Part shown: piece after piece, positions 11,785 through 64,000 of the stretch
Layout: each line of letters begins with the position of its first letter
Numbering within the stretch: position 1 is the stretch's first letter
Source: an uncultured Planctomycetota bacterium
Lineage (GTDB): Bacteria > Planctomycetota > PLA2 > JAEUHO01
Direction: 5' to 3'
Assembly (NCBI GenBank): GCA_963752285.1
Contig: CAVVXN010000001.1
Location: 768,001-832,000, forward strand
DNA: 64,000 nucleotides
The notes under the pieces: generated by a model
What the model was told of the DNA's origin: nothing
Seen by the model: only the letters and a program-made list of their open reading frames with translations
The model's database searches: none
Position numbers and translations under genes: made by a program

Positions 11785-12147
11785 ATGATGCTGCCGATGG
11801 CGTTCGTCTTCGAGCCGTTCCTGCTGTTCCTGGTCTGGGGCGTGCTGCTCCTCTTCAACCTCTGGCTGTGGCAGAAGACGAAGGGGCAGGGCAACCTCGT
11901 GATGATGGTCGGGGCGGGCGTGCTGGCGCTGGCGGCCCTCCTGTTCGCTTTCGAGAGCGTCAGCCGATTCGTCTGGTTCTGGCTCCCGTTCATCGGGGCC
12001 GTGATCCTCGTCATCGGCTTCTACCTGACCTCCAAGACGATCGTGGACGCGCACCTCACGGGCCTCAAGACGAAGCTCCACGACATCACCGCCGAGAAGA
12101 AGGCGCCGCCGTCCTCCGGTCCGACGCCGCCGCCGGCCGGCGGGTAG
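11785..12147 (+). CDS. Small membrane protein (about 3 TM helices)
   Basis: Three hydrophobic stretches; GGAGG upstream; host-like codon usage. Confidence 0.7.
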   Translation: MMLPMAFVFEPFLLFLVWGVLLLFNLWLWQKTKGQGNLVMMVGAGVLALAALLFAFESVSRFVWFWLPFIGAVILVIGFYLTSKTIVDAHLTGLKTKLHDITAEKKAPPSSGPTPPPAGG

Positions 12148-12160
12148 GCGACCGGGTCCG

Positions 12161-12928: not shown

Positions 12929-13073
12929 CCGAGGCCCGCCTCGCGGGACCGCCTCCCGGCCCGGCTCGGGGCCCGCCGCCCGCGCGTGCTACCTTCGCCC
13001 CCCGGGCCCGCCCGGGCCCCCGAGGAGCACCCGACCGGCGACCGCGCCCCCCGAAGGCCGGATCTCGAGCGAC

Positions 13074-15179: not shown

Positions 15180-15868
15180 GCTCCCGCATCCTGATCGTCG
15201 AGGACGACGCCGCCATCCGTCTGGGACTGAAGCGGAGCCTCGAGTTCGAGGGATTCCACGTCGAGCTGGCCCGGGACGGCGAGGAAGCGATCCAGCGCGC
15301 GTTCGACAAGAAGCCCGACCTCATCGTGCTCGACCTGATGCTCCCCAAGGTCAACGGCTTCGAGGTCTGCCGCACGGTGCGGAAGTACGACAGCACGATC
15401 CCGATCGTGATCCTGTCGGCGAAGGGCGACGAGGGCGACAAGGTGCTCGGGCTGGAGCTCGGCGCCGACGACTACGTCACGAAGCCCTTCTCGATCCGCG
15501 AGCTGACGGCGCGCATCAAGACGGCGCTGCGGCGCCGCAAGGCGATGGAAGGCGAGATCGAGACCTTCGAGGAGGGAGACCTCCACATCGACTTCAGCGG
15601 CCAGACCCTCACCGTGCGCGGCGAGGGCCGGGAGCTCTCGACGCGCGAGTTCAACCTCCTCCGGCACCTGATCCAGAACCGTGGCCGCGTTCTTTCACGC
15701 GACCAGATCCTGAACAAGGTCTGGGGCTACGACTACGACGGCACGCCACGCACGATCGACAACTTCATCAACAAGCTGCGCCAGAAGATCGAGGACGACG
15801 CGACGAACCCCTTCTGGATCCTGACGGTCCGCGGCAGCGGCTACAAGTTCCGCCCCCAAGGCGACTGA
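15176..15868 (+). CDS. OmpR/PhoB-family response regulator
   Basis: MSSRILIVEDD, LDLMLP, GADDYVTKPF, winged helix RTIDNFINKLRQKIE..TVRGSGYKF. Confidence 0.95.
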   Translation: MSSRILIVEDDAAIRLGLKRSLEFEGFHVELARDGEEAIQRAFDKKPDLIVLDLMLPKVNGFEVCRTVRKYDSTIPIVILSAKGDEGDKVLGLELGADDYVTKPFSIRELTARIKTALRRRKAMEGEIETFEEGDLHIDFSGQTLTVRGEGRELSTREFNLLRHLIQNRGRVLSRDQILNKVWGYDYDGTPRTIDNFINKLRQKIEDDATNPFWILTVRGSGYKFRPQGD

Positions 15869-15880
15869 CGCCCGCCTCGT

Positions 15881-16798
15881 CTACGCTCCGGGAACCGGGC
15901 AGAGCGGCTTCCACATCCGCTTCGCGCGCGCTGGCGACCCGTACGCGTCCTCGATCGGGCTCGGGCGCCCGAGGAACCGCTGGACGCGCTCGGAGCAGCA
16001 GGGGAGCGCCGGACGCTCCCTTCCGGTGTAGTTGTCGATCGTCGGCCCCTGACCGCGCGGCGCGGTGAGCACGTGGAACGTCGTGGACGCGTTGGCGACC
16101 TGGACGTAGTCGCTCGGGCCCTGGCGCCTGAGGATCCGCACCACCGCCTCCACGCCGTAGCCCTCCGACGCGGCGCCGACGCAGGGGAACGCCCGGTAGG
16201 GCACGATCAGGGTGGTCGTGAAGATCTGCGCGTCCTTGGTCATCTGGACGAAGCGCGTCCACACGCTCACCTGGCCGGTCCGGTTCGCGTACGGGAGCAG
16301 GATCGACCGAATCGGCTGGTTGCCGGGCGAGGTGTAGAAGTCCACCGCCGCGCCGACGAGCTGGTCGCGGAGGCCCACCACCGCGAGGTCCACGTCGAGG
16401 CGGAGCGCCTTCGTCCCGCGGTGGTTCCGCCACGTGACGTTGTGGGTCTTCCGGATGTCGAGGACGCGTGTCTCGGTCGGGACCTGGGCGTAGACCGGCG
16501 CGGGCGGCGGCGCGGGCTCGACGTCCTCGGCGGGCGTCGCGCGGACCGGGAGCGGCATCGGGCCCTCGTCCGCACCCTCGGGGTCGGGGACGGCGACGGG
16601 CTCGCCCGGCAGGGGGGGCTCGTCGGGAGGCGTCTCGGCCGGCGCCGGCGCCGGCGGCGCCACGTCGGGCGGCAGCGGGGCCGTGGCGGCCCCGCCCGCG
16701 GGCGGCTCGTCCGCCCGGGCGGCCGGAGAGAGGGCCAGGAAGGTCAGGGCGGCGACGAGAACCGTGCCCATCGCGAGGACCAGGGGCCGGGAGCGCAT
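15881..16798 (-). CDS. Exported hypothetical protein, Pro-rich linker plus beta-rich domain
   Basis: Signal peptide MRSRPLVLAMG..ARA; GAGGAGG SD upstream. Confidence 0.65.
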   Translation of the reverse strand: MRSRPLVLAMGTVLVAALTFLALSPAARADEPPAGGAATAPLPPDVAPPAPAPAETPPDEPPLPGEPVAVPDPEGADEGPMPLPVRATPAEDVEPAPPPAPVYAQVPTETRVLDIRKTHNVTWRNHRGTKALRLDVDLAVVGLRDQLVGAAVDFYTSPGNQPIRSILLPYANRTGQVSVWTRFVQMTKDAQIFTTTLIVPYRAFPCVGAASEGYGVEAVVRILRRQGPSDYVQVANASTTFHVLTAPRGQGPTIDNYTGRERPALPCCSERVQRFLGRPSPIEDAYGSPARAKRMWKPLCPVPGA

Positions 16799-16800
16799 GT

Positions 16801-17199
16801 TCACCTCCTCGCCGTATAGACGACGATCACCGCCATCAGCAGGTGCACGAGCACCACGCACCCGACGCCGAACGTTTCGAGCGCCCAGCCGAGGGCCTGG
16901 TGGCCGGGCTCGGCCTCGAGCCGCGCGAGCGTCTTCTCCTTGACGGGGTACCACCAGAAGAGGAAGAACCACGAGGCGAGGGAGAGGACCGCCAGCACCC
17001 CCGCCTGCGTGAGCTCCATCTTGCCGGCGAGGGCGAGCGCGACCAAGCCTCCGTAGCCCATGAAGGCCAGGTAGGCGGCGGACCGGAGCACCCAGGAGTC
17101 CTTGAGCCGCTGGTGCGGGATTTCGAGGATCCGCCGGCCCCGGCCGGGGACGGGGGCGTCCCGGGAGGCGTCGGCGGCGTCGGGCTGGGGGTGGGACAA
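16801..17199 (-). CDS. Small membrane protein
   Basis: Three hydrophobic segments; probable TTG start with GGAG upstream (start uncertain). Confidence 0.55.
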   Translation of the reverse strand: MSHPQPDAADASRDAPVPGRGRRILEIPHQRLKDSWVLRSAAYLAFMGYGGLVALALAGKMELTQAGVLAVLSLASWFFLFWWYPVKEKTLARLEAEPGHQALGWALETFGVGCVVLVHLLMAVIVVYTARR

Positions 17200-17318
17200 G
17201 GGCGCTCCGAGGGGCGGAGCGGCGATGGTACCCGGCCGCGGCAAGCCGGCCGGGACCGGGACCGCCCGGGCCGGGGCGGGGGAGCCCCGGCCCGCGGGCC
17301 GCGTGGACCGGAGCCCGG

Positions 17319-18317
17319 CTACCCCCCGAGAAAGGCCCTCACCGCCTTCGTGAGCATCGGGACGACGACGTGGACGTCGCCCACGATGCCGTAGTCCGCG
17401 ACCTTGAAGATCGGGGCCTCGGGGTCCTTGTTGATCGCGACGATCACCTTGCTGCTGCTCATGCCCGCCAGGTGCTGGATCGCCCCGCTGATGCCCGCGG
17501 CCACGTAGAGCTTCGGCGACACCGTCTTCCCGGTCTGGCCCACCTGCTCCGCGTGGGGCCGCCACCCGGCGTCCACGACGGCGCGCGAGGCGCCCTGCGC
17601 CGCGCCCAGCGCACGGGCGAGGTCGTCGAGCAGCCCCCAGCTCTCGGGACCGCCGAGCCCGCGGCCGCCCGACACGATGCGGTCGGCCTCGGTCAGCTCG
17701 AGCTTCTTCTCCTTCGGCGCTCGGACCTCGCGGAGGCGGACCCGGGGGGCCGGCGCCTCGACGGCGAGGGGCTCGGCGGTCGCCTCTCTCTCCGAGGCCG
17801 TTGCCGGCACCGCGTTGGGGCGCACCGACACGAGGGCGGGCAACGGGAGGCGGAGCGTGGCGAGCGCCTTCCCCGCGTAGCGGGGCTTCGTGACGACCAG
17901 GCGGTCGCCCTCGAGCGCGAGCGCCGTCACGTCCGAGGCGAACGCGAGGCCCCGACGCGCCGCGACCGTCGGTCCGAGCTCCTTGCCCGCGAGCGTCGCG
18001 GCGAGGAGGACGGCGCGCGGCGCCGCCGACGTGATCGCGGCCTCGAGGGCCGCCGCGTGCGGCTCGAGCGCGTAGCGCCCGAACGCCTCGCCCTCGACCC
18101 GGAGGACGCGATCGACGCCGTGGTGTCCGAGGAGCCGGACGTCGGCGTCGCCGAGCGCGCCCGTGGCCACCGCGACGAGCGCGCCGCCGAGGCGGTCCGC
18201 GAGCGCGCGGCCCGCGGTCGCGACCTCCGCGGCCGAGCGCTTGAGCCCGCCCGCCGACCCCGACGCGCCGGCGGACGGGTGCTCGGACTCGACGTAGACC
18301 AGGACGTCGCCGGCCAT
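17319..18317 (-). CDS. etfA: Electron transfer flavoprotein alpha subunit
   Basis: [55 protein letters not shown]. Confidence 0.95.
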
Positions 18318-49934: not shown

Positions 49935-50008
49935 GGGCCCGTAGCTCAATCGGTGAGAGCAGGGGACTCATAATCCCTTGGTTCCAGGTTCGAGTCCTGG
50001 CGGGCCCA
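49935..50008 (+). tRNA. tRNA with CAT anticodon, most likely tRNA-Ile2; CCA not encoded
   Basis: GGGCCCG/CGGGCCC-A acceptor stem, TAGCTCA..GGT..AGAGC D-arm, GGGA-CTCATAA-TCCC anticodon arm, GGTTCGAGTCC T-arm. Confidence 0.92.
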
Positions 50009-50158
50009 CTCCCCTCCAAGGGCCATTTCTTCGCCTCTGGCGCCCATCACGATCCGTAATCCACCCCCGACCGAGAGCCCCCGTTCGCGCAAGGAGCGGC
50101 GAGGAAGTGCGAGGTCGTGGCACCCGTCCCCCAAAGTTTCCCCCAAAGTGGCTCTCCG
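49960..50158 (+). repeat. 199-bp direct repeat, copy 1 (tRNA 3' part plus 150-bp arm; att site)
   Basis: Identical by eye to 62281-62479; contains tandem CCCCCAAAGT at 50128 and 50140. Confidence 0.92.
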
Positions 50159-52215: not shown

Positions 52216-52719
52216 CTACCCTCCAACAGACTCGCGTCGCTCGCTGTTTGCCGCCGGCGCGGGACCCGAACCTGCCCCCACATCGATCCTCCCGACGGCC
52301 TCCCGCGCATCGTCCATCTGGAGCCTTACGTACACGTTCGCCGTGAGCGTCGGCGTCGAGTGCCGCATGAGCTTCTGGGCCTGGGCGAGGGAGACGCCGG
52401 CGCGCGCGAGGAGGGTGCCGTAGGTCGTACGGAGGGCGTGGAGGTCGATCACCCCGGCCGGCGTCTGGACGGGGATCCTCGCCGCCCCGAGGTCCTTCCG
52501 GAGCGTCACCGTGTTCGGGACCGCCCGGAAGACCTTGGCGCTCGGGAGCTGCTGGTCGCCCCGGAGCGTGGCGAGCGCGGCCACGGTCCCGGGCGGGAGC
52601 GGGAGCACGGCCTCGCGGCGGTTCTTGGCCTGGGACGCCCGGACGCGGACCGTCGCCACCTCCAGGTCCACGTCGGCCCAGGTGAGCGAGGCGAGCTCGG
52701 AGCGCCGCAGCCCCGTCCC
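52216..52719 (-). pseudogene. Tyrosine integrase C-terminal remnant truncated by IS
   Basis: TGLRRSEL, AKN, LHALRTT, MRHS, TANVY catalytic residues; homology stops at the IS boundary. Confidence 0.88.
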
Positions 52720-53729
52720 TGGTCCCGCAGAGGAGCATTCCCGGTACTGGATCTCGCCCGTGCAGCAGTTCGGTGACCGAGTAGAAGCCGAGGTTGGTCT
52801 TCGAGCCCTTCGGCGGGCCATGGACGAAGTTCAGCGCATCGGCGGCGAAGCTTGCGATCCTCGCGCTGGTGGCGCTCCTGGGCCCGCGTCTCTCCTACGA
52901 ACGGGTCCGGATCTTCCTGCCGGGGCTGGGCCGGCGGGAGGCGAGATCGTGGCTCCGGCGCTCTCGGCGGGACTGGGCGCGGGCGCGGGAACGGGGGCAG
53001 GCGTTGCTCCGGTGGCTCGCTCCCGGGACGGTGTGGGCGATGGACTTCAGCGAGGCGCCCACTCCGATCGAGGGGCGGTACCGCTACCTGCTCAGCGTGC
53101 GGGACCTGGCGAGCGGGATGCAACTGGTGGCGCTGCCGTGCCACGACACGACCGAGGCCACGGCGACGGCCGCGCTCGAGGCGGCGTTCCTTGCGCACGG
53201 CGCGCCGCTCGTGCTCAAGACGGACAACGGCTCGGCGTTCATCGCCGGGGCGTTCCGGGCGCTGCTCCTTGCCTACGGGGTGACCGCCCTCTACTCCCCG
53301 CCACGCTGGCCTCGCTACAATGGGGCCTGCGAGGCCGGGATCGGCGGGCTCAAGACCCGGGCCCACCACCTCTCGGCGTGGGCCGGGCGGCCCGGCGAGT
53401 GGACCCTAGAGGACCTGGAGCGTGCTCGATGCTACGGCAACGAGTTCGGACGGCCGTTCGGGCGAAGTCGGCCCGTGCCGGCGGGGGTCTGGGCGACGCG
53501 GCGCCCCCCGACGCCGGAGGCGTCAGACGCCTTTCGCGAGGCGCTCGCCCGGCACCGGGAGGCGCTGGCCGCGGTACGACATCCCGAGTCGGGGCGTTCC
53601 CGGCTCGCGCTCGACGAGCGCACGGCGATCACGCGCGCGCTCACCGAGCTGGGCTACCTGGAGTTCAAGACGAGGCGCGTTTCTCTACCCATTTCCCCGC
53701 CTTTGGCGGCAGGGATTCTCTGAGGACCA
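52720..53729 (+). mobile_element. IS3/IS481-like insertion sequence, probably internally deleted
   Basis: TG...CA ends with imperfect inverted repeats (TGGTCCCGCAGAG versus TGGTCCTCAGAG). Confidence 0.65.
52794..53723 (+). CDS. DDE (rve-type) transposase, N-terminus probably incomplete
   Basis: WAMDF, LKTDNGSAF, YSPPRWPRYNGACEAG. Confidence 0.85.
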   Translation: MVFEPFGGPWTKFSASAAKLAILALVALLGPRLSYERVRIFLPGLGRREARSWLRRSRRDWARARERGQALLRWLAPGTVWAMDFSEAPTPIEGRYRYLLSVRDLASGMQLVALPCHDTTEATATAALEAAFLAHGAPLVLKTDNGSAFIAGAFRALLLAYGVTALYSPPRWPRYNGACEAGIGGLKTRAHHLSAWAGRPGEWTLEDLERARCYGNEFGRPFGRSRPVPAGVWATRRPPTPEASDAFREALARHREALAAVRHPESGRSRLALDERTAITRALTELGYLEFKTRRVSLPISPPLAAGIL

Positions 53730-53852: not shown

Positions 53853-56132
53853 GTGTCCGCACGTTGCGGCAACGAGGAGGTCGGGAGGATCGAAGTGACT
53901 ACCTTCCCGTCCTGCAGGGGGCGTGTGACCGTAGCGCGGTCGCGTCTTGTCTTGGGAACACACGTCCTTCGGGTTGTTTGTCAGTGGGTGCTGCTGGCGG
54001 TGACCCTCTTTGCGTGTCGCGCCGGAAGCCGCGGGCCAGTCGACGTTTGCCCGAAGGAAATCGAGCGCGATGCATCAGTGAAGCGACTGTCCACCGCTGC
54101 CGCTGCGTCGGCGGCAGCCGGTGTGCCGCGTGGTGCGAGTGCCTCGGTCGTAATCACAGTGGTGGATGGTTCTGCCAGACCCATCGCTGGTGCGCGGGTG
54201 CGTATCTCCAGCGATCTCACGGTACTGACTGGCTGGGACGGTGTCGCGCATGTGCAACGAGCGCCGGTCGGGGAGTACAGAGCAGCCATCTGGTCCCAGG
54301 GACATCGCGCACAGGCTGTCCCCCTGGAGGTGATCCCGGGAAGATCGGTATCGGCGCGAGTGGTCCTGCGCGCGTGCCGTGGTCTACGCAGTGTGGTCCT
54401 CGATGCCGAATCAGCTCGGCCAGTGGCAGACGCGGAGTTGCGCCTGTATGACGACGGCGACTGGGGAGCACCGTGGCCGGAGAGCGTCCCGGCCCATGTC
54501 GGTCGCCCGACTTGGCAGGCCCGAAGCGATGGGCGCGGGGAGATCACCCTTCCATGCTCCTGGGGCGCTCTGGAGATCCGTGCGCGTGGCTACGCAACGA
54601 TCTGGAAGTTCTACGACGCCACGAAATCAAGCATGCGCCGCCGGTTCCCGGTGTACCTCCCCCAGTCAGGATGCGTGCGGGGTCACGTCGTCGCGGGACT
54701 GGAAAGCCGATGCAGCGTCGTGGCGACGCCGAGAGAACTCGCGCTACACGTCTATCCTGACGAGGGTTATTCTGACCCGTTCTTATGGAGAACCCCCGTC
54801 TTCAGGGATGCGCTTCGGGTGAGGACGGTGTCCGTCCAGCAGGGGGGTGGCTTCTTCATCGAAGGGGAGCCGATCGGGGAAGTCCTTGTCCTACGTGTCA
54901 TGTGCTCCGGCCATGAGCCCGGTACTGCGGTGGTCGTGCGCGCGGCCCTAGGAAAGCGGAGTCCCGACGTGTCGCTCCGGCCAGGTCCGCTCTTCCTGCA
55001 GGGTAGGCCGGATGGGGACCGAAACCGCGACGCGACGACGTCGGCCTTCGAAGTGGCTGGGCAGGTTGTCGACGAGGCCGGAAGGCCGGTGGCGGGGGCG
55101 GGTGTCTGGATCCACGGAAGGCGGGGCGCCGCGGCCCTGACGGACGCAGGAGGACACTTCGCAGGGATACGGGGCGCACTGGAGCCTCTGACTGAGATCG
55201 TTGCAGCGAAGGCCGGCTACAGCCGAGCTACGCGGGACCTGCGGACGTCCGGCAACGCCAGGGTGGTCTTGACCCTGGAGCGAGCCGCGCGACTCGTGGG
55301 AGAGGCCCGGATCCCGATGACCGTCACGGAACCCGGATCTCTCGGCCTCTCATGGCAGCTCGGCTGGGGTGAAGCCGTGGTGCCTTGGCCCGCTCACGCG
55401 CGAGGACGCTTGCGATTCGACATCAGCGCTCCGCCTGGGCACCTTGGCGATCTTCGCATTGAAGCGTGGCCGTTCGCCGCGGAAGTTCGGCAGGTAGAGA
55501 CCGTGCCCGGCCAGACCCTCGATCTCGGAACCGTGCAGCTCGCTCCCATTCCTCATGAGGTGATCTCGGGCACGGTCCGGAGGGAAGAGGGCGGTGCGCT
55601 ACCCGACGCTGAGGTCACGTTCAAGCGCGATGAAGAAGTCGGTACGGCCGCGCAGGCGACAACGGATGAGGCAGGGGCGTTTCAGTTCAACGTTCGAGGT
55701 CAAGTGCTGGGCGGCGAGTTGCGCGTGGTGCGGGCCGGTTACTGCAATGTGGTGAGGCACATTGTAGCTGGTCCCGGGCCCAAGCGAGTGGACATCGCAA
55801 TGGAGGAAGCGGGGACGATTGAAGGAAGGGTCCTCGGGGCCGAGGGGCACCCTGTCTTCTTGCTCCAAATCGAGGCTTGGAGTGCGGCCTCGAAGGAGAC
55901 CTGGGGTGCCCTCACCTACACGGATCGTGGTGGACGTTACTACCTTGAGCTGAAGCCGGGGCTCTGGTCGCTGCGCTGGGCTCTTCCGGGGCACCAGCAC
56001 GTGGGACGTGGAGATGAGAGGATCATCCGGGATCGGTTCCGAGTTGGGGCAGGAGAGCACCTGTCCCTTGTAACGTACCTCTCGGACTTGCCTCAAGTGG
56101 GAGTTCCGAAGCCGCGCGAGCGTTCCCGGTGA
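53853..56132 (+). CDS. Exported protein with repeated carboxypeptidase-regulatory-like beta-sandwich domains; start uncertain
   Basis: Repeated G.V.D..G.P(V/I)AGA.V and TD..G.F motifs; possible lipobox LFAC. Confidence 0.75.
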   Translation: MSARCGNEEVGRIEVTTFPSCRGRVTVARSRLVLGTHVLRVVCQWVLLAVTLFACRAGSRGPVDVCPKEIERDASVKRLSTAAAASAAAGVPRGASASVVITVVDGSARPIAGARVRISSDLTVLTGWDGVAHVQRAPVGEYRAAIWSQGHRAQAVPLEVIPGRSVSARVVLRACRGLRSVVLDAESARPVADAELRLYDDGDWGAPWPESVPAHVGRPTWQARSDGRGEITLPCSWGALEIRARGYATIWKFYDATKSSMRRRFPVYLPQSGCVRGHVVAGLESRCSVVATPRELALHVYPDEGYSDPFLWRTPVFRDALRVRTVSVQQGGGFFIEGEPIGEVLVLRVMCSGHEPGTAVVVRAALGKRSPDVSLRPGPLFLQGRPDGDRNRDATTSAFEVAGQVVDEAGRPVAGAGVWIHGRRGAAALTDAGGHFAGIRGALEPLTEIVAAKAGYSRATRDLRTSGNARVVLTLERAARLVGEARIPMTVTEPGSLGLSWQLGWGEAVVPWPAHARGRLRFDISAPPGHLGDLRIEAWPFAAEVRQVETVPGQTLDLGTVQLAPIPHEVISGTVRREEGGALPDAEVTFKRDEEVGTAAQATTDEAGAFQFNVRGQVLGGELRVVRAGYCNVVRHIVAGPGPKRVDIAMEEAGTIEGRVLGAEGHPVFLLQIEAWSAASKETWGALTYTDRGGRYYLELKPGLWSLRWALPGHQHVGRGDERIIRDRFRVGAGEHLSLVTYLSDLPQVGVPKPRERSR

Positions 56133-56310
56133 ATCGGCTCTGCGCCGACTCATTCGCGCTCCGCCGATGGGATGGGCGCGCGTCCCGCAGCCCCTTGACC
56201 GTGTGCTTCCGGCGATGGTGCGTGAGTCCGGGCCGCGGCGGCTGCGCGGGGCGCCGGGCGGGGCTCGGCGGGCGAGGGTGAGACCGGCGCCCGGCGCCGA
56301 CTTCCCGTCT

Positions 56311-56356
56311 TCGGAGGTGCGTGTCAATCCCTTCTGGAGCTTCCTGCCCAGAAGTC
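56311..56356 (+). repeat. 46-bp cassette-boundary motif, copy 1
   Basis: TCGGAGGTGCGTGTCAATCCCTTCTGGAGCTTCCTGCCCAGAAGTC; 38/46 identical to copy 3. Confidence 0.8.
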
Positions 56357-56540
56357 GGCACCGGGAGGACGCGGCCGTATCCGCCGACGAGGCCCGGCCC
56401 GGCGCGGAACCCGGTGCCTGACTTCCCGCAGACGGCGCCGACCAGGAGGGCGGAAAGTCGTCCTGCCGGGGCCGCGCGAGCAACGGGGAGGGCGCTTGGA
56501 GCCGGGTCTGATCGAGCTGGCGGTCACGCGTGACACGACA

Positions 56541-56616
56541 ATGGCCTGCCGCGGTAGGATCCTGGCCATGGCCGAGCCCGGGGAAGGTCCGCGGTCGGGG
56601 CGCGTGGCGGTGCCGC
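56541..56616 (+). repeat. Rhs cassette leader, copy 1 (TAGGAT box plus ATG)
   Basis: 68/76 identical to 59461-59536. Confidence 0.85.
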
Positions 56617-56653
56617 CTGCGCGCGACGCTGGGACCAAGCGTGCGCGACGCGG

Positions 56654-57865
56654 GTGCTGGGCCGACGGGTGGGGAAGGCCGTGACGGGTGGCGTGACCGA
56701 GCGGTACGTCTACGCGGGCGTCGAGACGATCGCGACCTACGACGGCTCGAACACCTGGAAGCAGGACTTCGTCTTCGGCCAGGGGATCGACAACGTGTTG
56801 ATGCTCGAGCAGGCGGACGTGCTCGACTTCGACTCGGACCAGAACACGACCGAGACGACAAGGTCCTTCTACCACAAGAACGCGCTCGGCTCCGTGATGG
56901 CGATCACGGACATGAACGAGGCGACGGCGGTGTCGTACCGGTACGATCCGTACGGCGAGGTAACCGTCACGCGCGGATGGCAGACGCAGTCGGCGGACCC
57001 GCTGCAACAGCACTGGACGTACCCGGGGCGGTTCTTCGACGAGGAGACGGGGCTCTACTACTATCGGGCGAGGTGCTTTGGCCCGGAGAAGGGGAGGTTC
57101 CTGGAGAGGGATCCGCTGGGCTATCAGGTTGGTCCGCACTTGTACAACTATGCAGGCGATCGACCTATCGGCATTCGCGATCCACTCGGCCTGGACGGAC
57201 TGGCGGACCCCGACCGGGCAGGCCCTGAGCCTGGTAGCGCGAATGACCCCGGTGGGTTTGATGAGAATCGCGGAGGCGGGCAGTTTGATCCGTTTACGTC
57301 CAGCGCAGGCACTCTGGAGTTCAGACTCGATGTCTACTTCTGGATTCCACGTGGCCACGGCCCCGCGGGAGGACTCTACGTGCAGTCGCGCATCTTGGTG
57401 TTTGCGACCGGGTGCAAGACGCAGCCCGGGACGTCTTTGCCATGCCCCAATCCACGCCTGACCGTGGAGTACTTCAGGTTGGATGGATATCGGACGAAGA
57501 TCCCGGACACCCATAGCTCCACGTTCATGACTGGATACTGTGCGGGCACAGTGCACGTTAGTTTCACTCTTACCTTGGGCGCGTTGATTGTGCGGGACCC
57601 CAACACCGGCGACTGGACGTCCGGCGCAGCATACTACCGGGCAGCGGCGTACGGCTACGTTCCACCCGCCACCCACACGACGTTCGGATTGGATAATGTA
57701 CACTTCACTCCCCTGAGTCGGCCTCGACGGTGGTATTACCAATTCAATTTCGATCAATGCACAGGCTCACCATCCAGGATCCGGTGCAGCTGGGACAGGA
57801 TCACTCGCCCGAGGCTCCGAGAGGATCCGGTTCCGAAGCCGCCCGTCATAACGCCTAGTGACTAG
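56654..57865 (+). CDS. Orphan Rhs core + C-terminal domain 1 (partly degenerate)
   Basis: LGRRV, HKNALGSV, YDPYG, ETGLYYYRAR, GRFLERDPLG, PIGIRDPLGL, then a beta/Cys-rich tip. Confidence 0.9.
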   Translation: MLGRRVGKAVTGGVTERYVYAGVETIATYDGSNTWKQDFVFGQGIDNVLMLEQADVLDFDSDQNTTETTRSFYHKNALGSVMAITDMNEATAVSYRYDPYGEVTVTRGWQTQSADPLQQHWTYPGRFFDEETGLYYYRARCFGPEKGRFLERDPLGYQVGPHLYNYAGDRPIGIRDPLGLDGLADPDRAGPEPGSANDPGGFDENRGGGQFDPFTSSAGTLEFRLDVYFWIPRGHGPAGGLYVQSRILVFATGCKTQPGTSLPCPNPRLTVEYFRLDGYRTKIPDTHSSTFMTGYCAGTVHVSFTLTLGALIVRDPNTGDWTSGAAYYRAAAYGYVPPATHTTFGLDNVHFTPLSRPRRWYYQFNFDQCTGSPSRIRCSWDRITRPRLREDPVPKPPVITPSD

Positions 57866-59012
57866 GGAGTACGCTGTGAACGCCGGTCTGTTCCGAGGTT
57901 CGCTAGTGGCCGCCGCCTTCGTTGTGTCCCTTACCCTAGCCTCTTCTCGTGCCGAGGATCGACCTACCCGAGACGACGTGCGACATGTGTTCCGGGCATT
58001 CGCACCCGAGTACTACCGCCGCTTCTACGCCTGGGCCAATGCACAGACATTTGTGCCGGGAGAGAACCTAGGAAAGGAGGAGCGTGACGCACGATATGCG
58101 TCACTGCGCCGGAGGAGCGAGTTGTGGGCTGAGGCTTTCCAGGAGGTGTTGGTGCTGGACAGCGATCAGACCTTCGTGCTCGAGTTTCGCGACCTTGTGT
58201 CCATGCCTGACAAGGTGCCCGTGATGTCCGTGATCCCGGAAGGGGCATGGACCAAGTGGAGCGGTCGGTGGGCACGGACTGGAACGACGTTGCGACTGAC
58301 GGTGTGGCGAATCAATGGATTACCTGTGGCTTCGCCAGTTGACTGGGTGGCTGTATGGATTCGGAGAGAGGTCGTCATTCCGAACCTGCGACAGGGCTAT
58401 GCACCAGCGGTCATGCACGAGGTTCTTGGCGGGGATGTGGGTACGAACCAGGTCTTGGACAGGAATGAGGATGCAAGCCAGCGGTGTGTGTCTATCTCGT
58501 CGACGGAGAGTCGGCTCGGCAGGTTGGCAAAGAGCATTACGGGCCTGCTGCGATTCGCGCTTGGTGAGAAGCATCGCAAGGCGTCTCAGAGGAGCGCGTT
58601 TGCAGACAACCCTCACCATTGGCTGCAAGTGCTGCGGGGGCCGAACGAGGCGCAGTGGACGGAGGCTGCCGTGGAGCTCGTCCGTCTCCACTCCACTGAG
58701 GCTGCTACGACCTTCATGAAGATCCTCGATGAGCGGAGAGGTGAAGGCGAGGTTCGGGTAGTTGCGGCGAACGCGCTAGGGGAGTGGAGAGTCGTTGACA
58801 GTGTGCCCACACTGATACGATCTCTCCAGGACGAAGACCGCGTTGTGCGGCTTTCAAGTATGTACGCTCTGGAGAGCGTAACCGGTCACCACATCGAAGT
58901 CGAAGGAAGTGATCGGAGTGAGGAAGAGGTTGCGAGTTGGCTGCAATCGCAGTGGTCGGCCTGGTGGGCAGAGAACGAGGCATCTGTGCGTGCTTCTCAT
59001 GCCGGGAGCTGA
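57858..59012 (+). CDS. Exported HEAT-repeat protein, candidate partner/immunity of Rhs-CT1
   Basis: Overlaps the Rhs stop; signal peptide; VRVVAANALGE and DEDRVVRLSSMYALESVTG; W..WW end. Confidence 0.75.
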   Translation: MTREYAVNAGLFRGSLVAAAFVVSLTLASSRAEDRPTRDDVRHVFRAFAPEYYRRFYAWANAQTFVPGENLGKEERDARYASLRRRSELWAEAFQEVLVLDSDQTFVLEFRDLVSMPDKVPVMSVIPEGAWTKWSGRWARTGTTLRLTVWRINGLPVASPVDWVAVWIRREVVIPNLRQGYAPAVMHEVLGGDVGTNQVLDRNEDASQRCVSISSTESRLGRLAKSITGLLRFALGEKHRKASQRSAFADNPHHWLQVLRGPNEAQWTEAAVELVRLHSTEAATTFMKILDERRGEGEVRVVAANALGEWRVVDSVPTLIRSLQDEDRVVRLSSMYALESVTGHHIEVEGSDRSEEEVASWLQSQWSAWWAENEASVRASHAGS

Positions 59013-59070
59013 GGCACCAGAACCTGTTCCGTCCCCGATCGGTGTTGACTCCTGACGGCCTTGGGAATCC

Positions 59071-59116
59071 TCAGAGGTATGTATCAGTCCCTTCTGGATA
59101 TTTCTGCCGAGTACTC
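59071..59116 (+). repeat. 46-bp cassette-boundary motif, copy 2
   Basis: TCAGAGGTATGTATCAGTCCCTTCTGGATATTTCTGCCGAGTACTC; 42/46 identical to copy 3. Confidence 0.85.
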
Positions 59117-59220
59117 TAATATCGGGGTCGCGGATCGTCCCGCCGCAATGACGGCCGTGGGCGTGTGTGAGGGTCGGGGCGGCGCCCCCCAGTCGGGCCG
59201 ACCGGGCATAGGACCCGCCG

Positions 59221-59325
59221 TGTCGGGTTCCTCCCCCTCGATGTCGTCAGGCGGAGCACACCCCGCATTGCGCAGCTCGGCTTACGGCGAGGCGGGCGGC
59301 CCGGGCTTCGCGGCGCCGGGTGGCG
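59221..59325 (+). repeat. Inter-cassette linker repeat, copy 1
   Basis: Shares GTCGTCAGGCG..GCACACCCCGCA..GCGCAGCTCGG..AGGCGGGCGGC..GCGCCGGGTGGCG with 61901-62003. Confidence 0.8.
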
Positions 59326-59460
59326 AGGGGCGCCCGGACGTTGACGCCCGTCCCGAAGTAGACTTGGTCCGGCGTCCGGCCCTGGATGGCCTGTGATTAG
59401 CCCGCCGTCAACACCGGGCCAACTGTCCCCATAGGGCTTCGGACGCCGCCTTTCGCACGC

Positions 59461-59536
59461 ATGGCCCGTTGCGGTAGGATCCTGGCCATGGCCGAGCCCG
59501 GGGCAGGTCCGCGGTCGGGACGCACGGCGGCGCCGC
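59461..59536 (+). repeat. Rhs cassette leader, copy 2
   Basis: TAGGAT at 59475-59480 and ATG at 59488, in frame with Rhs2. Confidence 0.85.
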
Positions 59537-61047
59537 GCGCCCGCAGGACAGGCTCGGCCCGCGGCAGGGCGGATGCGCCGGGCCGGCGGGTCGAGAAGGC
59601 CGTGTCGGGCGGCGCGACGACGCGCTACGTGCTCGACGCACAGCAGGTCGTCGAAGAGTACGACGGGCAGGACGTCTGGCAGGCGCGGTACGTCTACGAG
59701 GACGGGATCGACCGCCCGCGCGTCATGGACCGGGCGGACCAGGCGGACGTGAACGGAAACCAGAACACGACCGAGGTGCTCCGGTTCACGTACCACCAGC
59801 AGGCGCTGGGGTCGGTGACGGAGGTTTCGGAGCCCGGCGGGAGCGTCGTCGAGTGGGTGACCTACGACGCTTACGGCAAGCCCACGACTCTGGACCAGCA
59901 GGGAAACGCGGTCGCACAGAGCCCGGTCGGGAACCCGTACCTGTACACCGGGCGCGAGTATGACGCCGAGACGAAGACCTACTACTTCCGAGCGCGTGCG
60001 TACGACCCGGAGACTGGGCGGTTCCTGCAGAGAGATCCCGCTGGGTACGTCGGGGGGCTGTCCCTCCACCAGTACGTGGGGTCGGGCCCAGCTTCGTTCA
60101 CCGACCCGTCGGGGCTCATGCCGGAACCGAAGGACAAGGAGAACAAGCCAGTCGAGTGGCTTCGGTGGGCGGGCCAGCAACTCGTGGCTGCTCAGGAGAG
60201 GGCAGACGCTGCGTGGCGAGCCTATGACGCCGCTCTGGATGCGGCCTATGCGGCAGGGGGAGTGGTCAACGGTCTCCAGAAGCAGATCGACGATCTCAAG
60301 GAGAAGATCAAGGAGATGGAGGAGAAGTGCCTCGACACGACGCAGGAGGAGAAGGATCTTGCCAAGTTGGAGGAGCGCCTCGCGGACGCGAAGGCGGCGC
60401 AGGACGAGGCGTGGCATAAGGTCGACGAGGCTATCGCCGCCGCCGACACGGCTCAGGACGCTCTTGACGCCGCCGAAAACGAATTCCACAAGGCAGCGCA
60501 AAACATGTGGACTAAGAGCGGTGGGACCGGAAGTGTGCCACGCGGGGATCTCGGGGCTCTTAGCAGGGAGGACTTCAAGAGGTTGGCCAAACTCGATTTG
60601 ATCGCGTTCGGCGCGCGCGGGCAGGGCGGCGCCGATGACTGGTCTGCGCTGGCGATCGGCTACGGCCCGACCCGCTTCAGGGAACTAGGGATTGATCCAG
60701 ACACTGGACAACCTCGTATGGGTAGTGGGAACTCCAGGGGCATGTGGATTGATGTCAACGATACGTTGGACCCGGCGTACGGGGCGCGAAGTGGGATCGG
60801 TGAACAGATGCTAGGAGAGGTGTGGTTACATGAGGCTCGGCACTACTCGGAGGGAAACGACGAGCACTTTGTCTCATGGCCGGATGGAGCCATGCCGGAG
60901 ACAACCGACGCGAATCGATGGCAAGGCTACGAGGATCATTCGCCGGATCCGGCACGAGGAGTTGAGCATGGTGGGCGGAGTGGCTGGCTCCCGTATGACC
61001 AGCAGACGTCGCGTAACGCGCAAGTCGCCGGACGAAGGTACAGGTGA
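59488..61047 (+). CDS. Orphan Rhs core + coiled coil + HExxH metallopeptidase-like C-terminal domain
   Basis: GRRVEK, YDAYG, GNPYLYTGREYD, YDPETGRFLQRDP, PASFTDPSGL; VWLHEARH. Confidence 0.9.
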   Translation: MAEPGAGPRSGRTAAPRARRTGSARGRADAPGRRVEKAVSGGATTRYVLDAQQVVEEYDGQDVWQARYVYEDGIDRPRVMDRADQADVNGNQNTTEVLRFTYHQQALGSVTEVSEPGGSVVEWVTYDAYGKPTTLDQQGNAVAQSPVGNPYLYTGREYDAETKTYYFRARAYDPETGRFLQRDPAGYVGGLSLHQYVGSGPASFTDPSGLMPEPKDKENKPVEWLRWAGQQLVAAQERADAAWRAYDAALDAAYAAGGVVNGLQKQIDDLKEKIKEMEEKCLDTTQEEKDLAKLEERLADAKAAQDEAWHKVDEAIAAADTAQDALDAAENEFHKAAQNMWTKSGGTGSVPRGDLGALSREDFKRLAKLDLIAFGARGQGGADDWSALAIGYGPTRFRELGIDPDTGQPRMGSGNSRGMWIDVNDTLDPAYGARSGIGEQMLGEVWLHEARHYSEGNDEHFVSWPDGAMPETTDANRWQGYEDHSPDPARGVEHGGRSGWLPYDQQTSRNAQVAGRRYR

Positions 61048-61122
61048 ACACCGGCGCCTGGGAGTAGCCACTCTCGTCCCTTCCCGAAGCGGGAAGTGGT
61101 GCCCGAGCAGTCTGTGGGGACT

Positions 61123-61725
61123 ATGATGCCGGTCAAGGGCTGGAAGTGGGGCCTCGCCGTCGTACTCGTCGGTGCTTGCGTCCTCGGGGTCATTGTCTGG
61201 AAGATGACCGCGTGGAGCGGCGGGCCTGAAGAAGAGGACGGAAGTGCCAAGTGGATTGACATCGGGGAGGGGGTTATGCTCGTGCGCATACACCTCCGTG
61301 TGACGGACGCCGAGGGAATTCCCGTGGCTGGGGCGCGTGTCGTGTCAGACTTGAGCCGCACGGCGCTGGAGAGTGAGGAGGCTATCAATGACGTGCGGCG
61401 AATGGTCGATTCCGCTCTCGCAGAGGGTTTCAGGGGCGAGGAACAGGTCGCGATTGCCACCACGGATCAGAGTGGGGTGGCTGTGTTGGAGTACACCTCT
61501 GGGCGCGGAGGCGAGATCGCTTGGATCCCAGCGGTCCAGCGTGGGGAATTCCCCTTCGCGTGGTGGGTGCGCGTGGACGCGCCGACGTGCGGGACCTTGA
61601 TTCGGCCCCTGAATGAACCGAGGAACATCCGCTTCGACCTGCATCCCGGTCCGGTCGGACGCGGACGCTTTGGCGAGATCAAACGGGTTGGCGAGGCGGA
61701 TTTCGAGATCCGGTGTGAGAAGTAG
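61123..61725 (+). CDS. Membrane-anchored candidate partner/immunity protein of Rhs-CT2
   Basis: N-terminal TM; VTDAEGIPVAGARV and TTDQSGVA beta-sandwich motifs. Confidence 0.7.
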   Translation: MMPVKGWKWGLAVVLVGACVLGVIVWKMTAWSGGPEEEDGSAKWIDIGEGVMLVRIHLRVTDAEGIPVAGARVVSDLSRTALESEEAINDVRRMVDSALAEGFRGEEQVAIATTDQSGVAVLEYTSGRGGEIAWIPAVQRGEFPFAWWVRVDAPTCGTLIRPLNEPRNIRFDLHPGPVGRGRFGEIKRVGEADFEIRCEK

Positions 61726-61751
61726 AGGCCGTGGGTGAAGGCTGAGATGCA

Positions 61752-61797
61752 TCCGAGGTGCGTATCAGTCCCTTCTGGAGATTTCTGCCGAGTACTC
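61752..61797 (+). repeat. 46-bp cassette-boundary motif, copy 3
   Basis: TCCGAGGTGCGTATCAGTCCCTTCTGGAGATTTCTGCCGAGTACTC. Confidence 0.85.
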
Positions 61798-61900
61798 GAA
61801 CAGCGGGACGGCGGGTTCCCCCTGCCGCGAAGGGGCAGCGGGGGGGCGTGAGCGGGTTGCTGGCACGCACGTCCGTGCCGATCGTGCATGAGGGTCGAGG

Positions 61901-62003
61901 TGTCGGGGATCCTCCTCGGCGTCGTCAGGCGCTGCACACCCCGCAGCGCGCAGCTCGGTTGGCGGCCAGGCGGGCGGCACGGGCTTGGCAGCGCCGGGTG
62001 GCG
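61901..62003 (+). repeat. Inter-cassette linker repeat, copy 2
   Basis: Similar to 59221-59325, at about the same distance from the boundary motif. Confidence 0.8.
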
Positions 62004-62280
62004 CGGCGGTCGGAGTCGCGGGCGGCGGCGTGGCCGACCGTCCCCCGACGTGGCGCGTGTTCCCCGGGGGCGTGGTGTGGTCCGCGGACCGTGCGCCGGG
62101 CGCGACACGGCGCGACGTGGGCGCCTGGAGGCGGCCGACGAGGCGCCCGGTCGCCAGGCCCCCCGGCGGGGCGCGCGCCCTGTTCGGGCGGTCACCGTAC
62201 GATCGGCCCCCTGACCTACCCAAAGTGCCCCTCGCCGTCGCCCACGGAGGGCCATTTCATGCGGGTCTTATTGCGTTTCC

Positions 62281-62479
62281 CAGGGGACTCATAATCCCTT
62301 GGTTCCAGGTTCGAGTCCTGGCGGGCCCACTCCCCTCCAAGGGCCATTTCTTCGCCTCTGGCGCCCATCACGATCCGTAATCCACCCCCGACCGAGAGCC
62401 CCCGTTCGCGCAAGGAGCGGCGAGGAAGTGCGAGGTCGTGGCACCCGTCCCCCAAAGTTTCCCCCAAAGTGGCTCTCCG
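62281..62479 (+). repeat. 199-bp direct repeat, copy 2 (tRNA 3' fragment 62281-62329 plus arm; attP-like)
   Basis: Identical to 49960-50158; an extra CCCAAAGT box upstream at 62219-62226. Confidence 0.92.
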
Positions 62480-62676
62480 CGTTCGGTCCCCAGGAGCGCG
62501 CGCGTAGTCCACGACGGGCGTCTCCCTCCCCGGCGGTGAGGGCCCCGGTTCCGACCCCCGAGATCGCGTCTGCGCGCGGTTAGGGCAATGCAGTCATCGT
62601 AGTCCGTCAGAGTGTATGCACGGTGGACGCTGCGCGCTACCGTGACATTCATCCAACTGGCGAAAGGAGGTGACCA

Positions 62677-63735
62677 ATGAGCAGATGGATCCTCACGCTC
62701 TCTTTGGCAGTTTTTCTGTGGCCAAGGGAGGCCCTAGCACGAGATGAGGAACAGCACGTCAAGGAGTTGCAGGAGAGAATCGCCGTGCTGGAGAAAGAGA
62801 ACCACGTCCTGAGGCAGAAAGTCCTCTGGCATGAGTTGCTAGCAGCGGCCCGGTTGCCCAGGTCGGCTACTCGTGTGGATGTACTCCGATTAGGCCCCGG
62901 TTCCCGTCAGGCAAATGAACGGAGCGAGCACCTCAAGGGGATCCGGCTTCCCGATCGCCCCTCCAAGAGCGCTGTAAGGGAGTACGTCGGGAGGATCCTC
63001 GAGGCGGCACAGGATCACCGGCAGGTTTTCGAGTCGGTCGATCCCGAGATTGCTCTACTGGAAGCGGTTGGCCCCGCCAATGTAGACATATTGATCGAAC
63101 CGCTCGTATACCTCCCTCACATAGGTCCCTCGTATTACCTCATCGAGGCACTCGATACACTAGTCGGGGCAGAGCACAAGGAGTTGATTCTCGATAACCT
63201 CGCCGCTGCCGATGAGCTCGTGGCGATTGTCACTGATCGTGGATGGGTGAGAGACGCGGCGCCGATATTGCTGGGGGTTCTCGCAAAGAGGTCTGCGTTG
63301 CTGTCGGTGGAGTGGGTAGAGGCGGCCGCCAAAGTTGCCGGCCCGGACCGTTACGACGACTTGAAGTTCCAACTCGTCAACAACATGTCTCCCCTTCGCA
63401 TCTGGAAGGCGATCCGCTCCTTGCCTGGAATTGGCCCACTGGACAAGTTGATCGCTGAGAGGTGGCAACGAACGCCGAGGGTCGAGGACTCCTGGTCCTG
63501 GCAGCGGCTCGCTGCAGTCGCTGCCTACTGCGGTCACCTAGATGCGTTGGCGGCCGTGGTGCGGCACCTAGAGTCGAATGATGGGGAATTGTGGGGGACA
63601 TTCCAAACCCTGACTGGCTATGATGGTCAACCTGGCCCCCCGGAGCAGGCTGAGAAGGCAAGGAGGTGGTTCGCGGAACATGAGGGCAGCCTTGTCTTTG
63701 ATCGTTCGCAGGGGCGCTATCGAATCGTCAAGTGA
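62677..63735 (+). CDS. Exported hypothetical protein (signal peptide, short coiled coil, helical domain)
   Basis: Strong SD AAGGAGGTGA; MSRWILTLSLAVFLWPREALA; KELQERIAVLEKEN. Confidence 0.75.
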   Translation: MSRWILTLSLAVFLWPREALARDEEQHVKELQERIAVLEKENHVLRQKVLWHELLAAARLPRSATRVDVLRLGPGSRQANERSEHLKGIRLPDRPSKSAVREYVGRILEAAQDHRQVFESVDPEIALLEAVGPANVDILIEPLVYLPHIGPSYYLIEALDTLVGAEHKELILDNLAAADELVAIVTDRGWVRDAAPILLGVLAKRSALLSVEWVEAAAKVAGPDRYDDLKFQLVNNMSPLRIWKAIRSLPGIGPLDKLIAERWQRTPRVEDSWSWQRLAAVAAYCGHLDALAAVVRHLESNDGELWGTFQTLTGYDGQPGPPEQAEKARRWFAEHEGSLVFDRSQGRYRIVK

Positions 63736-63772
63736 GACGCACGAGCTCAGCGCGGCCACCATCTGAGCCGAG

Positions 63773-63844
63773 GAGCGGGATGCGTGAATCGCGCACGTCC
63801 GGATGTGTGGAAGGCCCGGGAGGCAACTCCCGGGCCTACCCGAC
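63773..63844 (+). ncRNA. Group II intron 3' fragment (domains V and VI only)
   Basis: DV GAGCGGGATGCG-TGAAT-CGCGCACGTCCGGA with AGC triad; DVI AGGCCCGGGAG-GCAA-CTCCCGGGCCT followed by bulged A and CCCGAC end. Confidence 0.85.
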
Positions 63845-64000
63845 TCCGTACGGTACGGTCACGATCACGCGGAGGGGGCAGACACAGTCGTCGGATCCCC
63901 TGGGGCAGCACTGGACGTACACGGGGCGGTTCTTCGACGTGGAAAGCGATCTGTACTACTTCCGTGCGCGCTACTGCCACAGCGGCCTCGGGCGCTTCAT
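63845..64000 (+). pseudogene. Third orphan Rhs core fragment, startless, runs off the window
   Basis: From 63846: PYGTVTITRRGQTQSSDPLGQHWTYTGRFFDVESDLYYFRARYCHSGLGRF; homologous to Rhs1 from 56947. Confidence 0.85.

Follow-up and report, generated by a model that had tools for sequence, protein, structure and literature searches.

Orphan Rhs cassettes and a recurrent 46-bp motif

We analyzed a 64,000-nt stretch of the genome of an uncultured Planctomycetota bacterium (the window; positions 768,001 to 832,000 of contig CAVVXN010000001.1, here G000:C1:768001-832000), in which orphan Rhs cassettes stand in tandem and a 46-bp non-coding motif recurs at three points of the array. The genome (G000) comprises 4.64 Mb at 73% G+C; its assembly, made up of five contigs of which three break off within arrays, is 89% complete. 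Comparison within this genome and with its relatives indicates that the motif is very probably the right terminal inverted repeat (IRR) of a decayed insertion sequence (IS) of ~1.6 kb, which encoded a single rve-type DDE transposase related to those of IS3 and IS481. Positions without a contig label are those of the window. The features that bear on this identification are the following:

56311 to 56375, minus strand: IS scar 1, the 46-bp motif as probable right inverted repeat, its outer terminus lying near 56314, and ~15 nt of the interior; nothing else of the IS is left
56541 to 56624, plus strand: leader 1, which precedes the truncated rhs and is out of frame with the rhs open reading frame (ORF); 87% identity to the leader of the second unit (59461-59544)
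56654 to 57865, plus strand: orphan Rhs fragment 1, with the core end at 56942-57193 (TIGR03696, 72.6 bits), then a unique tip of 223 aa; DPLGL motif
57858 to 59012, plus strand: partner gene 1, a HEAT-repeat protein (HEAT_2, E=4.9e-12), presumed immunity gene
59071 to 59396, minus strand: probable IS scar 2, with the motif at 59071-59117, ~130 nt of untranslated interior and a transposase C-terminal pseudogene at 59250-59396 (49 codons plus stop)
59461 to 61047, plus strand: leader 2 (59461-59571) and orphan Rhs fragment 2, with the core end at 59863-60117 (78.5 bits) and a 309-aa tip
61096 to 61725, plus strand: partner gene 2, presumed immunity gene, with four more family copies in the genome
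61726 to 61751, minus strand: probable degenerate IS end of greater age, immediately behind the stop codon of partner gene 2, with the younger scar 3 sitting inside it (judged by eye)
61752 to 62028, minus strand: probable IS scar 3, with the motif at 61752-61798, then untranslated interior and, at about 61928-62015, the final ~26-30 codons of the transposase

An earlier reading of the window, made from its letters and ORFs (the sequence-only reading), described the order as motif, linker, leader, Rhs core, tip, partner and again motif. This order holds for two full units (56311-59070 and 59071-61751), the second of which is closed by the third motif. TIGR03696 core ends number three in the window and 23 in the genome, DPxGL motifs are present, and the tips differ between orphan copies. 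With a core end, a variable tip and a small downstream gene, the units can be classed from their sequence as orphan Rhs cassettes, the toxin and immunity roles being presumed. No full-length main rhs lies upstream in the window, where the three Rhs ORFs have just 58-154 aa before the core; full-length rhs genes, of 2088 and 2165 aa, occur in the array at C1:24-44 kb. Tip 1 is near-unique in the genome, apart from a weak match (C5:627-1, 29% identity) where a contig ends, and the tip 2 family recurs at C1:49432, C3:2902, C2:936, and C5:324431. Relatives of partner 2 are encoded at C1:57051-57629 (30% amino acid identity) and, at 48-56% identity, at C1:47890-48459, C3:3906-4493, and C5:325134-325613.

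The leader, 84-111 nt in length, has six copies genome-wide, every one joined to rhs at the identical point. An origin of the leader from the IS was considered and rejected: it contains no motif-like sequence, and blastn shows it to be continuous with the flank that follows a tRNA-Gly repeat elsewhere in the genome. Within it, TAGGAT is followed 7 nt later by ATG (56555-56570 and 59475-59490, by eye), which would fit a leaderless-mRNA promoter; a sigma-70 scan was negative.

The three motif copies reported by the sequence-only reading were recovered by a repeat search as a 47-nt family at 56311, 59071, and 61752, copies 2 and 3 having 74% and 83% identity to copy 1. A degenerate 25-mer of the motif core (up to 3 mismatches) matches the window at exactly 56314, 59074, and 61755, all on the plus strand, with a chance expectation of 0 in 100 dinucleotide shuffles of the window. 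The motif holds a perfect 10-bp palindrome, CGAGTACTCG. As had been noticed, the DNA on the left of each copy is unrelated, and copy alignments show similarity starting sharply at GAGG. From the preceding stop codon on the same strand to the start of conservation there are 61 nt at motif 2, 29 nt at motif 3, and 181 nt at motif 1. The statement that each motif shortly follows the stop of a partner gene is thus right for motifs 2 and 3; the gene before motif 1 encodes a CarboxypepD_reg protein and has no Rhs core ahead of it, so that the label of partner gene is unproven there. In the whole genome, 16 copies match the 25-mer with up to 6 mismatches, and a profile built from these 16 finds 18 copies at E<1e-3.

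Homology of the motif to insertion sequence ends

Similarity among the 16 aligned genome copies does not end with the motif, but runs rightward from GAGG for up to ~380 nt. Read on the opposite strand, the DNA inside the motif consists of an untranslated stretch of ~170 nt and then the last 26-57 codons of an rve-type DDE transposase, ending in its C-terminus and stop codon (...IPHSAFQGQTPDEVYFGTG...RCGVCSA, then stop). This stop lies ~130-170 nt inside the motif in copies 2 and 3, and likewise in other genome copies. The translation of scar 2 (...GRTPDQVYFGTG...CGVCSA, then stop) is 73% identical to the C1 copy and 58-65% identical to most full-length homologues in relatives; that of scar 3 ends in ...ARAARLAANRAARCGVCSA and a stop, with reference positions 80-352 aligning to 61753-62028 of the window. 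Copy 1 is without a coding remnant, and ~62 nt of it match other IS remnants (query positions 182-243). Along the eight long copies, conservation is ~0.1-0.4 outside and 0.75-0.84 in the repeat, drops to 0.52-0.69 in the untranslated part, and climbs to 0.78-0.87 over the coding remnant, as would be expected of an IS that was once functional. These eight scars are truncated at different points on the right.

Matches to the transposase occur in 20 of 61 genomes including this one, and in 16 of the 28 genomes of the same family. The remnant peptides match full-length ORFs of ~400-500 aa in these relatives, mostly at 53-67% identity; intact transposases measure 421-422 aa, and the element as a whole ~1.6 kb. 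Full-length proteins match Pfam rve at E=2e-13 to 1.2e-6, and two of three pass the gathering score. In one relative (G022; locus L020, positions 2660-4240), an element of 1581 bp carries the transposase gene between 46-nt inverted repeats that are 95.7% identical to each other, and a pair of the same length and identity surrounds the transposase gene in G005. Eight copies from this genome, the three of the window among them, align without internal gaps to the left and right repeats of the relatives, and the resulting alignment of 14 sequences has 13 invariant columns, the CGAG..CTCG palindrome among them. In the relatives, CGAG(T/A)(A/T)CTCG, followed by ...CAGAA(T/G)G...GAC..., stands ~140-290 nt past the transposase stop. 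The profile of the 16 copies also matches relatives' loci at the predicted IS ends, facing inward (E=1.7e-5 to 9e-3); most of these matches fall ~150-290 nt past the transposase stop, whereas the match in L027 is a left end immediately ahead of the gene and that at position 3868 of L032 a solo end.

Searches with shorter patterns were less productive. A 30-mer with up to 3 mismatches, run on 60 relatives, matched only G000 itself, and an exact-pattern scan of metagenome contigs with the degenerate 30-mer gave 0 matches. A looser pattern gave five single matches in genome contigs of unrelated taxa, which we took as chance because they had no transposase nearby and weak profile scores.

It is the transposase remnants beside the motif, together with its gap-free alignment to the relatives' 46-bp inverted repeats, that lead us to regard it as an IS right inverted repeat, and the unrelated DNA on its left would accordingly be flank outside the IS. 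The sequence comparisons imply that the motif marks a former insertion point just downstream of a presumed toxin/immunity pair, where right-end scars alone survive and the left sides have been deleted. The motif is thus an IS scar, an ordinary kind of object. Of the site postulated by the sequence-only reading, the non-coding nature stands, but not its dedication to cassettes. The absence of an intact recombination enzyme beside the motif was correctly seen; the motif would be the recognition end of such a lost enzyme.

The intact relatives resemble IS3/IS481-related elements in their size of ~1.6 kb, their 46-bp inverted repeats, and a transposase with helix-turn-helix and rve domains, and the scars retain the repeat, the untranslated stretch and the transposase 3' end, as solo-end scars of IS3/IS481-type elements do. 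They differ from IS3 in that its two-ORF frameshift layout is not seen in this family, and from IS3/IS481-type elements generally in that only right ends survive in this genome, all in Rhs or island DNA.

A dedicated site for the capture of cassettes was what the sequence-only reading had proposed, either an integron-like attC served by a tyrosine integrase or a REP-like site on which an HUH (Y1) transposase acts in trans. Such a site would explain why the motif recurs at cassette ends in one orientation and with a sharp left boundary; moreover, the window holds a tyrosine recombinase fragment (52216-52821), the genome has one Y1_Tnp gene, and in the rAID arrays of Bacteroidales, orphan immunity genes in one orientation are described together with a tyrosine recombinase and conserved motifs between the genes (bioRxiv 10.1101/2025.05.03.651265). 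Yet the motif is homologous to DDE IS inverted repeats and is followed by the 3' end of that transposase's own gene, the integrase fragment belongs with a tRNA-Met repeat rather than with the motif, and the IS family is present in relatives with 0 Rhs cores (eight transposase matches in G011 and three in G022). Single-stranded DNA of the three copies, folded on both strands, gave z-scores of -1.26 to +1.52 against 200 shuffles, hence no significant fold, which speaks against the integron-like version. The HUH/REP version fares no better: the sole Y1 gene (PF01797; C1:103535-103858) lies beside no array, ~40 kb from the nearest one and ~665 kb from the window, and the remnant adjoining the motif is that of a DDE transposase. 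For an IntI-type integrase, we identified just the generic Phage_integrase fragment at 52216-52821, no IntI-specific model having been run. The motif does resemble integron attC sites and REP/RAYT repeats as a short non-coding repeat at cassette ends or between genes, of a kind acted on in trans, but it lacks an attC- or REP-like hairpin, its own enzyme is a DDE transposase, and the single Y1 gene is far off. A dedicated site is in our judgment the least credible of the explanations weighed here and is already largely refuted.

The rAID arrays are a further point of comparison. As described in the preprint cited above, they share with the present arrays co-oriented toxin-linked genes, conserved intergenic motifs and a nearby tyrosine recombinase. 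Here, however, an IS end makes up the intergenic motif, the recombinase is an integrase of the phage type associated with a tRNA, and the units are ~2.7-kb pairs of an Rhs tip and a partner gene rather than single short immunity genes. On account of the IS end and the two-gene units, we did not assign these arrays to rAID.

The motif might instead regulate the cassette that follows or the operon before it, as a promoter, terminator, protein-binding palindrome or small RNA. It always stands between a partner gene and the next orphan, it contains the perfect 10-bp palindrome, and some copies have TTGACA on the reverse strand ~10 nt from the terminus (by eye). Against this, a scan of 56000-62700 gave 0 sigma-70-like promoters and two terminator-like sites, neither at a motif; an Rfam scan of 56000-64000 (E up to 1) returned only a tRNA fragment at 62264-62329; and the motif folds no better than shuffled sequence. 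The palindrome belongs to the inverted repeat in all the relatives' IS copies, and may most simply be a transposase-binding feature. A regulatory role therefore seems very improbable.

Distribution and history of the scars

The sequence-only reading suggested scanning the genome for hits at cassette boundaries and beside a particular recombinase. On the first count, 17 of the 18 copies have one of the 23 Rhs core ends no more than 5 kb away, against 0.54 on average and at most 5 for random placement in 2000 trials, and all 17 array copies are co-oriented with rhs. On the second, what adjoins the motif is a DDE transposase remnant and not an HUH/Y1 enzyme. The remaining copy (C5:502502) lies elsewhere, in a further island-like stretch, after a partner-like gene of the HEAT-repeat type. 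Four observations thus stand plainly: the motif is homologous to IS ends, it adjoins transposase remnants, it has a sharp terminus, and it is restricted to, and co-oriented in, Rhs/island DNA.

The copies record more than one event. About 13 left flanks are mutually unrelated, with stop-to-terminus distances of 2-181 nt across copies, and two pairs share their left flanks (C1:53351 with C1:62195, and C1:56962 with C1:61659). The scars fall into at least two sequence subtypes. For four coding remnants of 47-51 codons, a small sample, six pairwise comparisons gave ratios of nonsynonymous to synonymous divergence (dN/dS) of 0.21-0.68, values that suggest divergence among live IS lineages rather than of a single dead scar. 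In the partner-2 family (C1:47890, C3:4493, and C5:325613), the IS end starts 4-5 nt after TAG, and a nested younger end occurs at two loci of the family, that at C1:47890 being a full IS end ~125 nt deeper inside. The ~29 nt that separate motif 3 of the window from the partner-2 stop resemble the first ~25 nt of the older end (by eye). Partial ends precede the full motif at C1:35999, C1:56962, C1:61659, C5:502505, and window copy 1, and C3:12837 and C3:12968 stand in tandem. Taken together, the differing truncation points, the dN/dS values and the co-oriented stacked partial ends argue for repeated nested insertion plus inheritance rather than one duplication.

Partial co-oriented IS-end fragments were recorded 0-170 nt to the left of full motifs at C1:47827-47863, C1:61811-61836, the flank of C1:35999, C5:502465-502505, and window positions 56200-56240 and 61726-61751. 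Between two tandem scars, a 76-nt sequence (C1:61738-61813) is 84-92% identical to C2:49158-49233 and to three sites on C5; it may be tRNA-like, although ARAGORN made no call there.

We propose the following history. The IS would have landed a few bases past the stop codons of ancestral partner genes and then been inherited with them, as is seen in the partner-2 family. Live members of the IS family would later have re-inserted in the same orientation into or beside old scars, which could account for stacked partial ends and for the better preservation of younger copies. Some whole units of scar, leader and truncated rhs would have been copied by recombination, and all IS copies would finally have been inactivated by different deletions. 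On this history, the motif has no cassette-moving activity today and is at most a homology block to the right of the variable tip and partner.

Several observations weigh against this account of the motif. The 89%-complete assembly contains no intact IS copy and no left end beside a transposase N-terminus; in a tblastn search of this genome, the 422-aa transposase of G022 matched with residues 365-422 only (three fragments), apart from three distant rve genes at 20-23% identity. The transposase falls below the NCBIfam cut-offs of the top-ranked models (117.3 bits against 160 for IS3, and 98.8 against 224 for IS481), for which reason we leave the name of the IS family open. Clear 46-bp repeat pairs were found in only two of the relatives' 11 loci; of the other nine, four have just 12-23-nt matches around the palindrome and five nothing convincing. 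The profile E-values on the relatives' ends are modest, and a target-site duplication is not evident at the two intact elements (G022 and G005). A plain IS-graveyard model alone predicts neither the single orientation of 17 out of 17 array copies nor the position of several termini 2-9 nt past stop codons. An inverted-repeat test with 13-mers, in the 88 nt left of each copy, showed no general enrichment (up to 1 mismatch in 1 of 16), although a region of this length missed the adjacent duplicate at C1:35999. Finally, the copies are partly non-independent: C1:1-16 kb (1-16000) and C2:8.5-17.5 kb (8500-17500) are near-identical contig-start stretches, so that two copy pairs are not independent. 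These two stretches share motif, scar, tRNA fragment and orphan, and may be an assembly duplicate or a real duplication.

Inheritance has clearly played a part, and one old tandem duplication of a cassette-plus-scar unit, with tips replaced later, could be thought to explain all copies. Six orphans have a common leader-rhs junction, the junction of scar 2 and leader 2 recurs at C3:13135-13548, and two copy pairs share left flanks; by their sequence, both junctions read plainly as inherited. A single event is nonetheless improbable as the source of the whole set, since it is at odds with the different truncation points, the two or more subtypes and the ~13 unrelated left flanks, the coding remnants differ mostly at synonymous sites, and the stacked ends show successive insertions.

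Another possibility is that the IS end was co-opted as a right homology arm, so that tip/partner modules enter by double crossover between the rhs core on the left and the scar on the right; only modules already carrying a co-oriented IS copy could then be captured. The variable tip and partner are indeed bracketed by the conserved rhs core and the scar, the uniform orientation of the 17 array copies relative to rhs is as required, and the scars at C1:56962 and C2:573304 are 97.6% identical over 85 nt despite unrelated left flanks and unrelated partner genes. Core recombination is, moreover, the documented route of orphan rhs activation in Salmonella (PMC3967940). On the other side, similarity breaks exactly at the IS terminus in every copy, which transposition predicts and spread crossovers need not produce, and Rhs arrays can be built with core repeats only: in G001, of the same genus, there are 18 Rhs core matches, and the two arrays examined (eight cores) share core repeats, with motif, scar and leader absent from both. 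We regard co-option as rather unlikely; it is in any case compatible with an IS origin, and is not an alternative origin of the motif.

In relatives, the IS family also occurs away from the ends of cassettes. In G009, an intact IS copy interrupts an rhs fragment instead of following a partner gene. At the same locus (L032, G009:C5:438000-453000, positions 5189-11378), an IS256-like transposase gene splits one rhs fragment, and a further rhs fragment borders directly on the right end of the intact IS.

Association of IS-like DNA with rhs loci has precedents. The H-repeat (H-rpt) of E. coli belongs to the ISAs1 family. It is IS-like DNA found with C-terminal tips downstream of rhs, and in the account drawn on here no transposition activity was observed (PMC3032704). 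The element described here is a different, rve-type IS, which is cut down to co-oriented right-end scars and recurs after most cassettes. IS30 and IS911 insert beside resident inverted repeats, IS30 with pronounced orientation specificity (PMC9333248), and by analogy such targeting could explain the stacked co-oriented ends, except that the younger end here lies ~14-125 nt inside the older one and does not abut it as a junction of left and right inverted repeats (IRL-IRR). In narrow keyword searches of the literature, neither co-oriented IS right-end scars following most Rhs cassettes nor single-cassette units bounded by att sites came up.

The near-confinement of the scars to Rhs/island DNA, their uniform orientation and their stacking point to repeated oriented re-insertion, or to selection for a fixed right homology block. 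For annotation, the lesson is to compare any conserved "boundary motif" of a toxin-cassette array with IS ends before anything else; here, that comparison turned an apparent new recombination site into an ordinary IS scar.

tRNA-linked islands around the cassettes

The cassettes lie within an island (island A) bounded by repeats of a tRNA gene. Besides the features given above, this part of the window contains:

49935 to 50009, plus strand: tRNA-Met gene (ARAGORN), the left boundary (attL-like) of island A
49960 to 50158, plus strand: direct repeat copy 1, made up of 50 nt from the 3' end of tRNA-Met and 149 nt of flank
52216 to 52821, minus strand: tyrosine recombinase fragment (PF00589, E=4.4e-16), its N-terminal part missing where the second IS begins
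52794 to 53723, plus strand: second, unrelated rve transposase ORF (type-2 IS), 309 aa (rve E=2.1e-13), overlapping the integrase fragment
53853 to 56132, plus strand: 759-aa gene with four CarboxypepD_reg-like domains and a weak teneurin TTR-like match, directly before motif 1
62281 to 62479, plus strand: direct repeat copy 2, the right boundary of island A and the start of a further element with the 352-aa gene and the third orphan Rhs
62677 to 63735, plus strand: 352-aa partner-like gene, part of a feature spanning 62677 to 64000
63732 to beyond the window end, plus strand: orphan Rhs fragment 3, with the core end from 63876 (C1:831876-832091, 68.9 bits)

The tRNA-Met direct repeats are 199 nt long and 100% identical, and copy 2 scores 28.7 bits with the Rfam tRNA model, just below the gathering score of 29 bits. 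They enclose 12.1 kb, which include the integrase fragment, the second rve transposase, the 759-aa gene, both complete cassettes and all three motifs. The flank of the repeat holds repeated CCCAAAGT boxes (by eye), which are also found just left of copy 2.

Repeats of a second tRNA gene run through the large Rhs array at C1:1-65 kb. The 3' 49 nt of tRNA-Gly(CCC), with flank, has seven fragment copies besides the gene, of which two are near-duplicates (C1 and C2); in addition, there is one flank-only piece. The tRNA-Gly repeats are positioned as follows:

Within C1:1-65000: 64613, 60494, 55745, 52595, 22138, and 557
On other contigs: C2:9043 and C3:15138

Among six aligned fragment copies, four are preceded by an arm of ~140 nt with repeated TTCTCAAnnTCCGnAA-like boxes and two by a different conserved arm, and the flank after the tRNA-Gly core runs directly into leader and truncated rhs. 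The units between successive tRNA-Gly repeats measure 4.1-4.7 kb and hold one orphan Rhs cassette each and no integrase, and a 303-aa integrase ORF (C1:20858-21766) adjoins one fragment copy. Clustered tRNA-Gly 3' fragments also occur in relatives, with nine matches within 14 kb on contig C4 of G009. The combination of direct repeats of tRNA 3' ends with a tyrosine integrase marks the arrays, though not the motif, as candidate tRNA-targeting integrative islands.

The arrays look, from their sequence organization, like the tandem accretion of integrative elements; homologous recombination could equally have amplified the units. Accretion of the CIME type takes place in tandem at tRNA genes and includes integrase-less elements bounded by att sites. 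The present arrays are similar in their repeated tRNA 3' fragments, their conserved upstream arms and the tyrosine integrase genes beside some copies, and differ in that each 4-4.7-kb unit carries as its cargo a single orphan Rhs tip with its partner, together with an IS scar. Integrases and tRNA genes likewise flank some vgrG6 (Rhs effector) clusters in Stenotrophomonas, in a preprint that also cites IS sites and Xer systems beside poly-immunity loci (bioRxiv 10.64898/2026.07.13.738213). If site-specific capture takes place in these arrays, it may proceed via the tRNA-derived att repeats and tyrosine integrases and not via the motif; for this role, the att-like repeats and integrases are the better candidates.

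Going further, integrase-less units of 4-5 kb, composed of att core, arm, leader, truncated rhs, tip, partner, IS scar and opposite arm, might accrete in tandem at tRNA-Gly and tRNA-Met by the action in trans of neighboring tyrosine integrases, with the co-oriented IS end as a fixed right homology block for tip/partner swaps. We consider this scheme speculative and, on balance, unlikely. If it were true, it would represent polymorphic-toxin cassette capture, integron-like in logic, that is built from a tRNA att site and an IS scar. Should orphan Rhs modules travel as att-bounded mini-elements, a site-specific route would be added to the accepted recombination-through-core model of Rhs diversification.

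Seven sequencing runs contain small shares (0.07-0.18) of the sequence words; four of them were assembled and gave low-depth pieces with three repeat-attributable joints and neither a circle nor an empty site, which has no bearing on mobility either way. The possibility that the 759-aa protein is the N-terminus of a disrupted Rhs was unsupported, as tblastn revealed no homologue in the genome, full-length rhs genes included. Copies of the type-2 transposase lie at C1:5487-4843, C1:834825-835241, C2:13991-13347, and C5:500138-500637; the first of these is 5'-truncated and fused ~100 nt behind a motif copy. In G001, a sequence with 70% identity to the tRNA-Met 3' part and flank stands just after an Rhs array (L035, G001:C14, positions 15864-16097), and a tRNA-Met-linked Rhs island common to the genus is suggested.

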